Below are positions 2,949-10,124 of a DNA stretch of 32,000 nt, piece after piece; within the stretch, counting starts at the first letter, position 1; the number at the start of each line of letters is the position of its first letter. The stretch covers positions 1,110,001 to 1,142,000 of the forward strand of contig NZ_JAGIOS010000002.1 of assembly GCF_017876815.1 (NCBI RefSeq), given 5' to 3'. The notes under the pieces were generated by a model, which saw only the letters and a program-made list of their open reading frames with translations, had not been told where the DNA came from and searched no databases. The position numbers were made by a program, and so were the translations under genes. The stretch comes from Sinorhizobium meliloti (GTDB lineage Bacteria; Pseudomonadota; Alphaproteobacteria; Rhizobiales; Rhizobiaceae).

Positions 2949-3092
2949 TATGGCGTTACCGGTGTGAAGACCTTCGTCGTCAATCGCAACGGCATCGTCT
3001 ACGAGGCGGATCTCGGCGAGGACACCGAGAAGACTGCCGCCGCCATCCGCACGTTCAATCCGAACGACTACTGGGCGGTCGTCCAGGACTAG
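2949..3092 (+). pseudogene. C-terminal remnant of a DUF2950-family gene
   Basis: The frame reads ..YGVTGVKTFVVNRNGIVYEADLGEDTEKTAAAIRTFNPNDYWAVVQD* with stop 3090-3092. This matches my memory of DUF2950 C-termini. The frame is closed by TAA at 2898-2900, so only about 50-60 codons remain, with no start or SD. Confidence 0.45.
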
Positions 3093-7248: not shown

Positions 7249-7316
7249 CATACGCCGCGTATTTTATTTGACATACGCGGCGTATGCAACTAATTAGATT
7301 CCATACGCCGCGTATG
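7249..7316. promoter_or_regulatory. three copies of a 13-15 bp palindrome (C)ATACGC[C/G]GCGTAT(G): probable TetR operators
   Basis: ATACGCCGCGTAT at 7250-7262, ATACGCGGCGTAT at 7273-7285 and ATACGCCGCGTAT at 7303-7315, all in the 112-bp divergent TetR/MFS intergenic region. Confidence 0.6.
7268..7296 (+). promoter_or_regulatory. sigma70-like promoter for the MFS gene (TTGACA-N17-TAATTA)
   Basis: TTGACA at 7268-7273, 17-nt spacer, TAATTA at 7291-7296. The spacer is occupied by operator copy 2. Confidence 0.35.
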
Positions 7317-7348
7317 TCATTCTGCACAAGTTTTCCAAGGAGCGTCTC

Positions 7349-8600: not shown

Positions 8601-8625
8601 GGAACAAACAGGCGGACCGCCGGTT
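8601..8625 (+). promoter_or_regulatory. EcfG/RpoE2-type general-stress promoter candidate (GGAAC-N16-GGTT)
   Basis: GGAAC at 8601-8605, 16-nt spacer, GGTT at 8622-8625, 36 nt upstream of ATG 8661. Confidence 0.4.
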
Positions 8626-8660
8626 CATCCGTCGGCCCGTCACCACGAGAGGAGAAACCG

Positions 8661-9143
8661 ATGGCGCGTGGATCACTCATTGCTGTAAGCGGATTATTCG
8701 CCGGTCTTGCCGCGGTGGCGGCGCTGACCGTCTCGGCCGAGCGCCGGAACGAAAGTCCCTGGCGGCCGATCAACGCGACGAGCCACTGGATACACGGCCG
8801 TCGAGCCGGTTCGCAGTCGCGTCTCGACCTCGCGCACACCGGCACCGGCTTCGTGACGCATATGCTTGCCTCACTCTGGTGGGCGCTGCCGTTCTCCGCC
8901 ATGGTCGGACGAAGCGCGCGGCCTTCGCCGCAGCGGGTGATTGCCGCCGCCTTCGGCACCACCGTGCTGGCAGCCCTTGTCGACTATGGGCTGGTACCGA
9001 AGCGTCTTACGCCCGGCTGGGAACTCGCCCTGCCGAAGTCCGACCTGGCGGCGGCCTATATGGCCATGGGTATCGGCCTGGCGTTGGGCGCATCCCTGCA
9101 TGGCGCAGCGGCGGCGCGCGGCCAGGAACATCCTCCGGTCTGA
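8661..9143 (+). CDS. hypothetical membrane protein (about 4 TM segments)
   Basis: 160-aa ORF with SD GAGGAG 7 nt upstream of ATG 8661. Hydrophobic segments include LIAVSGLFAGLAAVAALTV, FVTHMLASLWWALPFSAMV, VIAAAFGTTVLAALVDYGLV and AAAYMAMGIGLALGASL. I recognise no family. Confidence 0.6.
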   Translation: MARGSLIAVSGLFAGLAAVAALTVSAERRNESPWRPINATSHWIHGRRAGSQSRLDLAHTGTGFVTHMLASLWWALPFSAMVGRSARPSPQRVIAAAFGTTVLAALVDYGLVPKRLTPGWELALPKSDLAAAYMAMGIGLALGASLHGAAAARGQEHPPV

Positions 9144-9149
9144 CCGGTT
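9125..9149 (+). promoter_or_regulatory. EcfG/RpoE2-type general-stress promoter candidate (GGAAC-N16-GGTT)
   Basis: GGAAC at 9125-9129, 16-nt spacer, GGTT at 9146-9149. It overlaps the 3' end of the preceding ORF and lies 64 nt upstream of ATG 9213. Confidence 0.4.
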
Positions 9150-9212
9150 AGACCGGGTGCCAGCAAGACGTCGGTATCGAAACGCGACGACACATGCGTG
9201 AGGAGATCCCCA

Positions 9213-9392
9213 ATGAGCAGCCGACCACCGCCAATCCCTCCGGACAATCGCAGCGACAAGGGAACAGGAGAGCCTGGAACCGTGTTGGCCGAGTCGAAGA
9301 AGCCGGACGTGGCCGAGAACCCCGAGAAGAAGGGCCAGCAGGGCAACACGAAGGTCAATACGACCCATCAAGGCTACCAACAGGACAGATGA
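9213..9392 (+). CDS. small hydrophilic protein (59 aa), probably stress-induced
   Basis: ATG 9213 is preceded by GAGGAG at 7-nt spacing. The product MSSRPPPIPPDNRSDKGTGEPG..KKGQQGNTKVNTTHQGYQQDR is low-complexity and charged. The ..QGN.K.NTT.QGYQQDR tail resembles small conserved hypothetical proteins of Rhizobiales as I recall them. Confidence 0.55.
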   Translation: MSSRPPPIPPDNRSDKGTGEPGTVLAESKKPDVAENPEKKGQQGNTKVNTTHQGYQQDR

Positions 9393-9402
9393 GGCAGAGC
9401 GC

Positions 9403-9600
9403 ATGTCCACATCCAAGAAGACGCCAGCAAGCATCCGCCAGGGCGGTCCGGGAGCCTCGCACGAAAATGCAAAGGAGCCGCTGGAAATACCAAAGCCGCC
9501 AGCCGACTCCGAGCGCCGCACGCGCAGCAAGGTTTCCGGCGGCGGAGGCGAGCCTGACCGCCACCACAGTCACGACGCGAGGCGCAAGGGCGGGCATTGA
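9403..9600 (+). CDS. small hydrophilic basic protein (65 aa), hypothetical
   Basis: ATG 9403 lies 10 nt after the previous stop, with GAGG upstream. The product is disordered-looking (..KVSGGGGEPDRHHSHDARRKGGH). Coding status is uncertain. Confidence 0.4.
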   Translation: MSTSKKTPASIRQGGPGASHENAKEPLEIPKPPADSERRTRSKVSGGGGEPDRHHSHDARRKGGH

Positions 9601-9619
9601 CCATCGCCACTGCCTCGGA

Positions 9620-9644
9620 TGAACAATTCCTCATCGCAGGCGTT
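9620..9644 (+). promoter_or_regulatory. weaker EcfG-like motif (TGAAC-N16-CGTT)
   Basis: TGAAC at 9620-9624 (one mismatch to GGAAC), 16-nt spacer, CGTT at 9641-9644, 34 nt upstream of ATG 9678. Confidence 0.25.
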
Positions 9645-9677
9645 CTGCTTGACCCGCAACGGGTGGAGGAGTTCGCC

Positions 9678-9782
9678 ATGCGACGCGGTTTGCGCCATCA
9701 CCCAATGGTCGACCTGATCGTGTTCATCGCCGCCGTCGGGCTGGTTTCGGCGATCATGGTCGTGTCTCTCTTCTTCGGCTGA
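9678..9782 (+). CDS. 34-aa single-TM peptide, hypothetical
   Basis: ATG 9678 is preceded by GGAGGAG at 7-nt spacing. The product is MRRGLRHHPMVDLIVFIAAVGLVSAIMVVSLFFG: a basic N-terminus followed by one hydrophobic helix. Confidence 0.4.
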   Translation: MRRGLRHHPMVDLIVFIAAVGLVSAIMVVSLFFG

Positions 9783-9784
9783 GC

Positions 9785-9970
9785 ATGTCGCGACGGCAGA
9801 AGTCTGCTGCCGCTGCATGACGTCGCTGCGGAGGAGGCACTTTCCGCAGCGACGGCGGCGCCCCCGGGGAGGGGAGGAGGGAGGGACGCCGCCCGGGTCG
9901 ATTCCGGCATAGCGGAGGGGACAAGAGCCGACCCGTTCTTCTGGACAAGCCGCTTTGGGTAAAGCGACGG
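9785..9970 (-). ncRNA. candidate trans-acting sRNA with CCUCC-type anti-SD motifs (alpha-r14/'cuckoo'/CcsR-like); boundaries approximate
   Basis: Minus-strand promoter-like motif: GGAAC (10000-9996)-N16-TGTT (9979-9976). Downstream on the minus strand there are four elements. (1) A 5' hairpin CGCTTT-ACCC-AAAGCG (9966-9951). (2) CCCCUCC (9920-9914). (3) A CCCGGG/CCCGGG stem (9897-9892 with 9868-9863) whose loop contains CCCUCCCUCCUCCCCUC. (4) A perfect 12-bp hairpin (9854-9821) with CCUCCUCC (9837-9830) at the loop/stem junction. No U-tract terminator was found on this strand. Confidence 0.25.
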
Positions 9971-10068
9971 CGCCTAACACTCTGCGCCGCGGATGGTTCC
10001 GAGAAATACATGCCAAACGGCAATTCTGTTTCTGCCCCGGTCCGCTGGGGAAGAATGCCGGCCGCCTG

Positions 10069-10109
10069 CAGCGCCGCGCGTCTTGTCAGACGCGCAAAGC
10101 GCTGTTTTT
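10069..10109 (+). terminator. compound intrinsic terminator, plus strand
   Basis: Outer stem CAGCGC (10069-10074) / GCGCTG (10099-10104). Inner stem GCGCGTC (10076-10082) / GACGCGC (10089-10095), loop TTGTCA. Followed by TTTTT (10105-10109). It lies about 290 nt after the last plus-strand ORF. Confidence 0.55.
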
Positions 10110-10124
10110 GCCCTTTAACCGGCC

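Follow-up and report, generated by a model that had tools for sequence, protein, structure and literature searches.

Four motifs resembling the promoters of RpoE2, the general stress response (GSR) sigma factor of Sinorhizobium meliloti, are packed into 1.4 kb (positions 8601-10000) of a 32,000-nucleotide stretch of DNA from this species (contig NZ_JAGIOS010000002.1, positions 1,110,001 to 1,142,000 of the forward strand). This whole stretch is referred to as the window. Is the islet a genuine part of the GSR regulon, and what do its very small genes encode? We conclude that it is very probably a compact piece of the S. meliloti GSR regulon, made up of four units that each have their own RpoE2 promoter, of the type also called ECF15 or EcfG (ECF, extracytoplasmic function).

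Under stress, the PhyR-type proteins RsiB1 and RsiB2 are phosphorylated and bind the anti-sigma factors RsiA1 and RsiA2, and RpoE2 is thereby freed. The boxes recognised by RNA polymerase carrying RpoE2 are GGAAC (-35) and (c)GTT (-10), with 16-17 nt between them, and transcripts begin about 7-9 nt past the -10 box. In the islet, motif 1 would drive SMb20339, a 160-aa membrane protein (unit 1). Motif 2 would give rise to one mRNA for two small hydrophilic proteins, SMb20340 (59 aa) and an open reading frame (ORF) of 65 aa, ORF65 (unit 2). Motif 3 would serve the real SMb20341, a single-pass membrane peptide of 34 aa (unit 3), and the convergent motif 4 on the minus strand would produce a structured RNA (about 150 nt) with C/U-rich loops that may pair with the Shine-Dalgarno regions of target mRNAs (unit 4).

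Clustering of RpoE2-type motifs

Three strict matches to GGAAC-N16/17-GTT occur on the two strands of the 32-kb window, and all three are found within 8601-10000, which corresponds to only 4% of the window. Shuffled versions of the window contain 1.14 +/- 0.97 strict matches, and at least three were obtained in 9 of 100 shuffles, so that the count by itself is not significant. It is the clustering, not the raw count, that is the telling feature.

For a graded measure, we used a position weight matrix (PWM) trained on 42 published RpoE2 promoters that are anchored to a transcription start site (TSS), as given in the parts of Tables S19-S21 of Schlueter 2013 that were compared, with the site under test left out. 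True promoters obtain leave-one-out scores of 9.4-21.3 bits (median 16.4, 10th percentile 13.5). All four motifs of the islet lie within this range, with 16.9 bits for motif 4, 16.0 for motif 1, 15.6 for motif 2 and 15.2 for motif 3 (16.88, 15.96, 15.63 and 15.22 before rounding). Motifs 1, 2 and 4 have the exact -35 box GGAAC while motif 3 has TGAAC. Together with a strain-specific site at 9261 (14.6 bits) they represent the five top scores of the window, and the sixth is 12.7 bits. In a second-order Markov null of 20 Mb, matches of at least 15 bits occur at a rate of 1.5 per 100 kb on both strands, which corresponds to 0.021 expected in 1.4 kb versus four observed.

About 230 kb were scanned with the PWM, which amounts to 14% of pSymB, the megaplasmid from which the window originates. 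Two other 50-kb stretches agree with the null, having 5 matches of at least 13 bits per 100 kb. The regions at 60-110 kb and 230-280 kb, which were chosen for their published RpoE2 promoters, have 23 and 18 such matches, versus 2.7 expected per 50 kb. Clusters that are equally tight occur at 83.3-84.5 kb (SMb20073-75), 94.3-95.4 kb (SMb20082-85) and 251.0-251.15 kb (SMb20245). The motif density of the islet is far above chance, yet it is not unique on pSymB. Motifs on pSymB that are outside the promoter tables compared include those at 91,446, 97,968, 232,765 and 255,174, all on the plus strand.

The initial annotation, which had been made from the raw sequence, had placed the four motifs and the ATG codons at 8661, 9213 and 9678 exactly where we find them. 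Its three perfect -35 matches are motifs 1, 2 and 4 and represent all strict matches of the 32-kb window, and its rough estimate was well under one perfect match by chance in 1.5 kb. It had also named an objection to itself, namely that such a density may be typical of intergenic DNA. This is not so when compared to the null and to the two other 50-kb regions, but clusters of similar density occur within 60-110 kb and 230-280 kb.

Conservation of the four promoters

The islet was aligned between two strains of S. meliloti, two strains of S. medicae, Sinorhizobium sp. K101 and the divergent LMB1; for motif 4, S. americanum and Ensifer sp. USDA 6670 were added. When the xGAAC and GTT positions of the four promoters are taken as the core, with 3-7 genomes per promoter, only 1 of 32 core positions is variable versus 28 of 52 spacer positions (Fisher p = 8e-7). 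The single exception is the -35 box of motif 4, which is GGAAG in K101 and LMB1.

Could the motif cluster be a functionless product of base composition? The 9 of 100 shuffles that equal the strict count in 32 kb would allow for it. However, every match falls into 4% of the window, the PWM null is exceeded four to 0.021, the cores are conserved while the spacers are not, and published expression and TSS data exist (see below). This explanation has already been refuted and its probability is practically nil.

Motif 1 (8601-8626, plus strand) reads GGAACAA-N13-CGGTTC, with GGAAC at 8601-8605 and GGTT at 8622-8625. Its TSS is predicted at about 8633-8635, followed by the ribosome-binding site GAGGAG (8649-8654) of SMb20339. 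In S. medicae, K101 and LMB1 neither box varies, and the spacer is variable at 3 of 13 positions. The region 8601-8627 is almost palindromic (GGAACAAACAGGCGGACCGCCGGTTCA), so that the opposite strand reads TGAACC-N-TTGTTC toward the adjacent MFS gene; with 9.1 bits, this is too weak for a promoter call.

Motif 2 (9125-9150, plus strand) is GGAACAT-N13-CGGTTA, with GGAAC at 9125-9129 and GGTT at 9146-9149, and is the published RpoE2 promoter of SMb20340. It overlaps the final codons of SMb20339 and is kept across species. A fifth RpoE2-like site, GGAACAG-N14-GTGTTG at 9261-9287 (plus strand, 14.6 bits), is located within the coding sequence of SMb20340. It is present in the strain of the window and in CP050561, while one single-nucleotide polymorphism destroys the match in strains 1021 and 2011, and it is probably fortuitous.

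Motif 3 (9620-9645, plus strand) is TGAACAA-N13-GCGTTC, with TGAAC at 9620-9624, CGTT at 9641-9644 and a predicted TSS at about 9652-9654. It falls inside SMb20341 as annotated with 61 aa. In the tables compared, a TGAAC -35 box is known from the published RpoE2 promoter of SMb21332 (Schlueter 2013, PMC3616915).

Motif 4 (9975-10000, minus strand) is GGAACCA-N13-GTGTTA, with GGAAC at 10000-9996, TGTT at 9979-9976 and a predicted TSS at about 9968-9966. It has the best PWM score of the whole window and is kept in S. medicae, S. americanum and Ensifer sp. USDA 6670.

Published evidence for RpoE2 control

The window is 99.9% identical to the pSymB of strain SM11 and other strains. In strain 1021 the match is 98.9% and is found at pSymB 344,636-346,341; window positions up to 9782 are converted to 1021 coordinates by adding 336,136. 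The original arrays of an rpoE2 mutant are reportedly those of Sauviac in 2007, and Sallet in 2013 (EuGene-P) is said to have listed 108 RpoE2 units.

Membership of SMb20339-41 in the RpoE2 regulon is already published, as is the RpoE2 promoter of SMb20340. Table S18, in the part compared, reports signal log ratios of +3.50 for SMb20339, +2.69 for SMb20340 and +4.39 for SMb20341 upon RpoE2 overexpression (Schlueter 2013, PMC3616915). Table S19 of the same study assigns GGAACAT-N13-CGGTTA at 345,261-345,286 as the RpoE2 promoter of SMb_TSS0589, an mTSS determined by RNA-seq at 345,295. This TSS corresponds to window position 9159 and is 9 nt past the -10 box of motif 2. In the Table S18 row for SMb20341, three sense-internal TSS (seTSS) are given, one of them assigned to RpoE2 (Schlueter 2013, PMC3616915). 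An internal TSS of this kind would be expected if the real promoter is motif 3, which is inside the annotated ORF, and it probably fits motif 3.

The Schlueter arrays have been re-analysed (Data Set S1 of Lang 2018, PMC6180224), and among the overexpression sets SMb20339-41 appear only under RpoE2. The ratios across the neighbouring genes are 0.91, 2.46 (SMb20340) and 1.85, and two forward intergenic probes are RpoE2-induced, SMb20340-41 by +1.89 and SMb20341-42 by +0.81 (Lang 2018, PMC6180224). Independent data are found in Data Set S3 of that study, in which nodules of a strain with all ECF sigma factors deleted are compared to wild type. The log2 changes are -0.21 for SMb20340, -0.40 for the SMb20340-41 intergenic region, where ORF65 is located, and -0.43 for SMb20341; the complement-strand probe of the SMb20341-42 intergenic region changes by -0.51 (adjusted P 0.004). 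These lowered probes sit among many known RpoE2 targets, and SMb20339 is not listed (PMC6180224). All of these changes are small, and they are not RpoE2-specific.

Some points weigh against our assignment of units 1 to 3. SMb20339 is without a recorded TSS in the tables compared (Schlueter 2013, PMC3616915). Because the same arrays were used, Schlueter 2013 and Data Set S1 of Lang 2018 are one experiment, and the re-analysis was dropped as an independent replicate. Finally, it is by position alone that the internal TSS of SMb20341 is linked to motif 3.

The lack of a mapped TSS for SMb20339 in these tables would also fit a single operon, in which only motif 1 (or only motif 2) works, SMb20339-41 share one mRNA and the other motifs are mere passengers. 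The plus-strand genes are co-oriented and co-induced, with short gaps and no terminators between them. However, motif 2 has a TSS of its own and SMb20341 has an internal one assigned to RpoE2 in the tables compared, and the re-analysed induction ratios of the neighbouring genes are unequal. In addition, every motif core is conserved separately while the spacers diverge, and beyond the indel-rich gap upstream of motif 3, conservation resumes at its -35 box. We consider a single operon improbable and prefer separate promoters for the units.

With the published induction of SMb20339-41 and the TSS of motif 2, as far as the tables compared go, the description of this region in the initial annotation as a dense general-stress islet of tiny genes is supported. 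The gene content is indeed tiny, with products of 160, 59, 65 and 34 aa and an RNA of about 150 nt. New relative to the tables compared are the re-annotation of SMb20341 to 34 aa, the conservation of ORF65, the association of whole families with EcfG-type promoters and a candidate stress-controlled small RNA.

Units 1 and 2 in other Alphaproteobacteria

SMb20339 (8661-9143, plus strand) codes for a predicted membrane protein of 160 aa. It belongs to a family of uncharacterised membrane proteins of 150-170 aa that occurs across the Alphaproteobacteria (187 homologue clusters) and has PINATSHWxHG and VDYGLVPKRLTPGWE as conserved motifs (PINATSHWxHG and DYGLVPKRLTPGWE as invariant ones). Profile searches against Pfam, NCBIfam and PDB gave zero matches for all four islet proteins, and SMb20339 is thus without a Pfam domain or PDB relative in these searches. 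An EcfG-type motif is found upstream of the SMb20339 homologue in seven of seven alphaproteobacterial loci from other genera or orders, on the right strand and with 12-16 bits. The distance between motif and homologue is 34-81 nt in six loci and 274 nt in Pararhodobacter.

A cyanobacterial homologue had been considered as a negative control but is invalid for this purpose, as it has the gene neighbourhood of Aestuariivirga and is probably an alphaproteobacterial contaminant. On this contig, attributed to Kaiparowitsia implicata (GCA_016850805.1, JAESGQ010000049.1), the homologue is adjacent to DUF2269 and a DoxX_3 epimerase, as in Aestuariivirga. The contig has a G+C content of 61%, and TGAAC...ACGTTA is present upstream of the homologue.

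SMb20340 (9213-9392, plus strand; 59 aa) is hydrophilic and has an invariant C-terminus, GQQGN..NTTHQGYQQDR. Its 79 homologue clusters are from Sinorhizobium, Rhizobium, Neorhizobium, Bosea, Devosia, Methylobrevis and Aquabacter. Only 10 nt past SMb20340 follows ORF65 (9403-9600, plus strand; 65 aa), which is also hydrophilic. It is annotated by PGAP as 'hypothetical' in CP050561, and the 2013 gene tables, as far as these were compared, give no locus tag for it. With 822 homologue clusters in Rhizobiaceae and Phyllobacteriaceae, at 75-85% sequence identity, ORF65 is, to judge from its sequence, a real and highly conserved gene. Identity at this level spans Rhizobium, Mesorhizobium, Phyllobacterium, Chelativorans and Mangrovicella, and the stretches IRQGGPGASHENAK and VSGGGGE.D.HH.HD are invariant. 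Such conservation is unusual for a low-complexity, probably disordered protein.

ORF65 would be co-transcribed with SMb20340; the forward probe that covers its region is up with RpoE2 and down in the all-ECF deletion. Homologues of SMb20340 and ORF65 are adjacent in four of four genera (Rhizobium etli, Bosea, Mesorhizobium, Devosia), each time with an EcfG-type motif upstream (13.8-18.3 bits). Together with the SMb20339 homologues, such motifs are found at 11 of 11 other alphaproteobacterial loci examined. This family-wide association suggests that the general stress regulon of Alphaproteobacteria has units 1 and 2 as conserved members.

On a plasmid of R. etli NXC12, the homologues of SMb20340 and ORF65 are surrounded by ORFs of 53-90 aa, and an extra EcfG-type motif has 17.9 bits (position 3038 of the locus extract). 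In Mesorhizobium sp. M0496 they are also surrounded by tiny ORFs of this size, with extra motifs of 18.4 and 17.4 bits (positions 2275 and 2810 of the extract). It seems that islets of very small GSR genes recur in other rhizobia.

SMb20341 as a 34-aa peptide

SMb20341 is annotated with 61 aa from a TTG start (9597-9782, plus strand). Its N-terminal part, 9597-9677, shows non-triplet indels between species. Conservation resumes exactly at the TGAAC box of motif 3 and continues via the ribosome-binding site GGAGGAG (9665-9671) to the ATG at 9678. We thus assign the true ORF to 9678-9782, with a predicted product of 34 aa (MRRGLRHHPMVDLIVFIAAVGLVSAIMVVSLFFG), which has a basic N-terminus and one transmembrane segment. 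By tblastn, this part is found in S. medicae and K101; only one cluster at 50% identity exists. As it is detectable only in Sinorhizobium, unit 3 is, on the evidence of sequence similarity, lineage-specific.

On the plus strand, no terminator was found in 9783-10067. A hairpin followed by a U-run (UUUUU) at 10068-10110 is, by its fold, a likely intrinsic terminator for read-through from SMb20341. As there is no plus-strand terminator before it, the SMb20341 mRNA is probably extended by read-through that is antisense to the small-RNA gene over its full length. The 41-nt core of this hairpin is about 93% identical to sequences on replicons of S. fredii, S. mexicanum and S. chiapasense and on one S. 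meliloti chromosome, which points to a dispersed terminator-like repeat.

A candidate small RNA on the minus strand

Downstream of motif 4, we annotate a candidate small RNA (sRNA) of about 150 nt with four hairpins (9817-9968, minus strand). It is part of a conserved block whose upstream edge, at about 10,007, precedes the -35 box of motif 4 by 7 nt and which continues down to 9823 in the last hairpin, while both flanks are unrelated between species. Because its indels are non-triplet and an ATG start is not conserved, the block is considered to be non-coding. The predicted fold has a minimum free energy of -73.1 kcal/mol (z = -4.5). In six distinct orthologues, 91% of cells in the helices are paired, versus 37-53% in slid controls, and three pairs have changed on both sides. 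For the helices of stem-loops SL1-SL3, 87-100% of cells are paired in the orthologues. The loops of SL1-SL3 are C/U-rich (CCCCUCC, CCCUCCCUCCUCCCCUCCCC and GCCUCCUCC) and resemble anti-Shine-Dalgarno sequences.

A pattern scan of the genome collection found the RNA only in the narrow clade of Sinorhizobium/Ensifer, plus three chance matches in unrelated phyla. The RNA is present in a single copy per replicon. A paralogue had been considered upon two BLAST places per replicon; this was reduced to one with the RNA body alone, and local BLAST gave only a hairpin self-match. Relative to the window, strains 1021, 2011 and many others have 9 extra nucleotides, CGACGCATT, on the stretch from SMb20341 to the last RNA hairpin (at window position ~9800; 7300-7320 of comparison sequence L002). 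In these strains the RNA body is 100% identical to that of the window. Pairing of the RNA to the ribosome-binding regions of the islet, computed with RNAduplex, was no better than for random 37-mers, with SMb20341 being borderline, and was not used.

In S. americanum, the RNA keeps GGAACC-N-ACGTTA upstream, with neither SMb20339-41 nor SMb20342 nearby. This argues for promoter and RNA being an independent unit.

Several observations speak against an RpoE2-controlled sRNA. Among the probes induced by RpoE2 overexpression, the one for the intergenic minus strand is listed neither in Table S20 (2-fold), in the part compared, nor in Data Set S1 (1.5-fold). Its decrease in the all-ECF deletion, which is the sole expression support for RpoE2 control of the RNA, is a modest one of about 1.4-fold that is not specific to RpoE2. 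K101 and LMB1 have the altered -35 box. The last hairpin is not followed by a U-tail, the sequence being GUCAUGCAGC in S. meliloti and another non-U sequence elsewhere. Covariation in the six close orthologues is indistinguishable from shuffles; its power is low because the pattern scan for distant homologues gave only Sinorhizobium/Ensifer.

The first and third of these points leave room for motif 4 being a fortuitous match rather than a working RpoE2 promoter. The RNA block may then be transcribed from another promoter, or may be a structured 3' element of the transcript of SMb20342, the xanthine-dehydrogenase-family gene on the same strand, the end of which is only about 160 nt upstream. 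We consider this rather unlikely. Motif 4 has the top PWM score, conservation begins about 7 nt upstream of its -35 box and is absent from the 160 nt up to SMb20342, and in S. americanum the block has its motif without SMb20342 or SMb20339-41 nearby. The region yielded no sigma-70-like promoter, and in the all-ECF deletion the probe drops alongside known RpoE2 targets.

The convergent arrangement of units 3 and 4 is reminiscent of a type I toxin-antitoxin pair, with the 34-aa peptide as membrane toxin and the RNA pairing with the 3' untranslated region of its mRNA. The peptide is short, N-terminally basic and has a single transmembrane segment. In S. meliloti, where the plus-strand transcript has no terminator before ~10110, it would be fully complementary to the RNA, and the forward probe of the SMb20341-42 intergenic region is RpoE2-induced. 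However, peptide and antisense RNA are not obligatorily linked. Peptide gene and RNA gene are separated by about 40 nt in S. meliloti, and the distance increases to about 200 nt in S. medicae and to about 500 nt in K101, the intervening sequences being unrelated; in S. americanum the RNA occurs while the peptide gene is missing. In addition, the same sigma factor would switch both on. A toxin-antitoxin function is thus very improbable.

Rfam models of anti-Shine-Dalgarno sRNAs were also compared. By cmscan, the full-length ar7 and ar14 models align to 9817-9955 at 24.2 bits (RF02342; gathering threshold 60) and 22.5 bits (RF02344; gathering threshold 58.8). SL1-SL3 correspond to the three stem-loops with CCUCCUCCC-type loops of these families, but the Rho-independent terminator with U-tail is lacking. 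As the scores are far below threshold, the RNA resembles ar7 and ar14 in architecture and is a member of neither. At pSymB 3459xx-3461xx, no sRNA is entered in the list of Schlueter 2010, and there is none in the table of a 2020 review of conserved rhizobial sRNAs; Table S10 of Sallet 2013 and Table S11 of Schlueter 2013 are outside this comparison.

We tentatively propose, as a possibility that falls short of being probable, that 9968-9817 on the minus strand codes for an undescribed, GSR-controlled trans-acting sRNA, convergent and, in S. meliloti, overlapping with the mRNA of the 34-aa peptide, with anti-Shine-Dalgarno loops that would stop translation of a set of mRNAs when RpoE2 is active. 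The same tentative proposal includes that ORF65 may be a conserved core GSR protein of the Hyphomicrobiales.

Flanking genes

The islet is flanked by a TetR/MFS gene pair (SMb20337/38) on one side and by an operon of the xanthine-dehydrogenase family (aldehyde-oxidase/xanthine-dehydrogenase type), beginning with SMb20342, on the other. Between the divergent genes for TetR (SMb20337) and MFS (SMb20338), three copies of the palindrome ATACGC(C/G)GCGTAT are found at 7250-7317. They are probably TetR operators, because they overlap sigma-70 promoters that are listed for both genes in the tables compared (Schlueter 2013, PMC3616915).

Significance

A real EcfG/RpoE2 regulon islet was recognised by reading the raw sequence alone, and a simple PWM cleanly separates such islets from the background on pSymB. 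The annotation could be tidied, with SMb20341 as a 34-aa peptide and the 65-aa ORF as a real gene to judge from its conservation, and one more candidate GSR-controlled sRNA is nominated. EcfG-type promoters at the SMb20339 family and at the SMb20340/ORF65 pair across several alphaproteobacterial orders make these proteins candidates for core GSR functions. The biological gain is incremental and leaves the understanding of the general stress response unchanged.

Comparison with known systems

The promoters of the islet share with published S. meliloti RpoE2 promoters the -35 box GGAAC, the -10 box (c)GTT, the 13-nt spacer between 7-mer and 6-mer and, for motif 2, the distance to the TSS. There is no difference in kind; motifs 1 and 4 are without a TSS in the tables compared, and motif 3 uses TGAAC. 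As in the islet, published RpoE2 targets are mostly small proteins of unknown function.

The anti-Shine-Dalgarno sRNAs ar14 (NfeR1), ar15 (AbcR1/2) and ar7 share with the islet RNA a length of about 120-150 nt, several stem-loops, CCUCC-type loops and an intergenic unit of their own. The islet RNA differs by an extra 5' hairpin, the lack of a U-tail terminator, a putative ECF-type promoter, its restriction to a narrow Sinorhizobium clade and its single copy. The promoters of the ar14, ar15 and ar7 families are not known to be of the ECF type. In its predicted layout, the islet RNA equals published intergenic RNAs that have a GGAAC-N-GTT promoter 7-9 nt upstream of their 5' end. Sequence similarity to these was not detectable, and they have a TSS mapped by rapid amplification of cDNA ends as well as induction on arrays, both of which the islet RNA is without in the data compared.

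A close parallel to the islet as a whole is provided by the other RpoE2 clusters of pSymB. They also have 3-5 strong motifs in about 1 kb, on both strands and in front of small hypothetical genes, and many of their motifs are published in the tables compared. When compared to these clusters, the islet is smaller and isolated, and it holds a candidate non-coding RNA.

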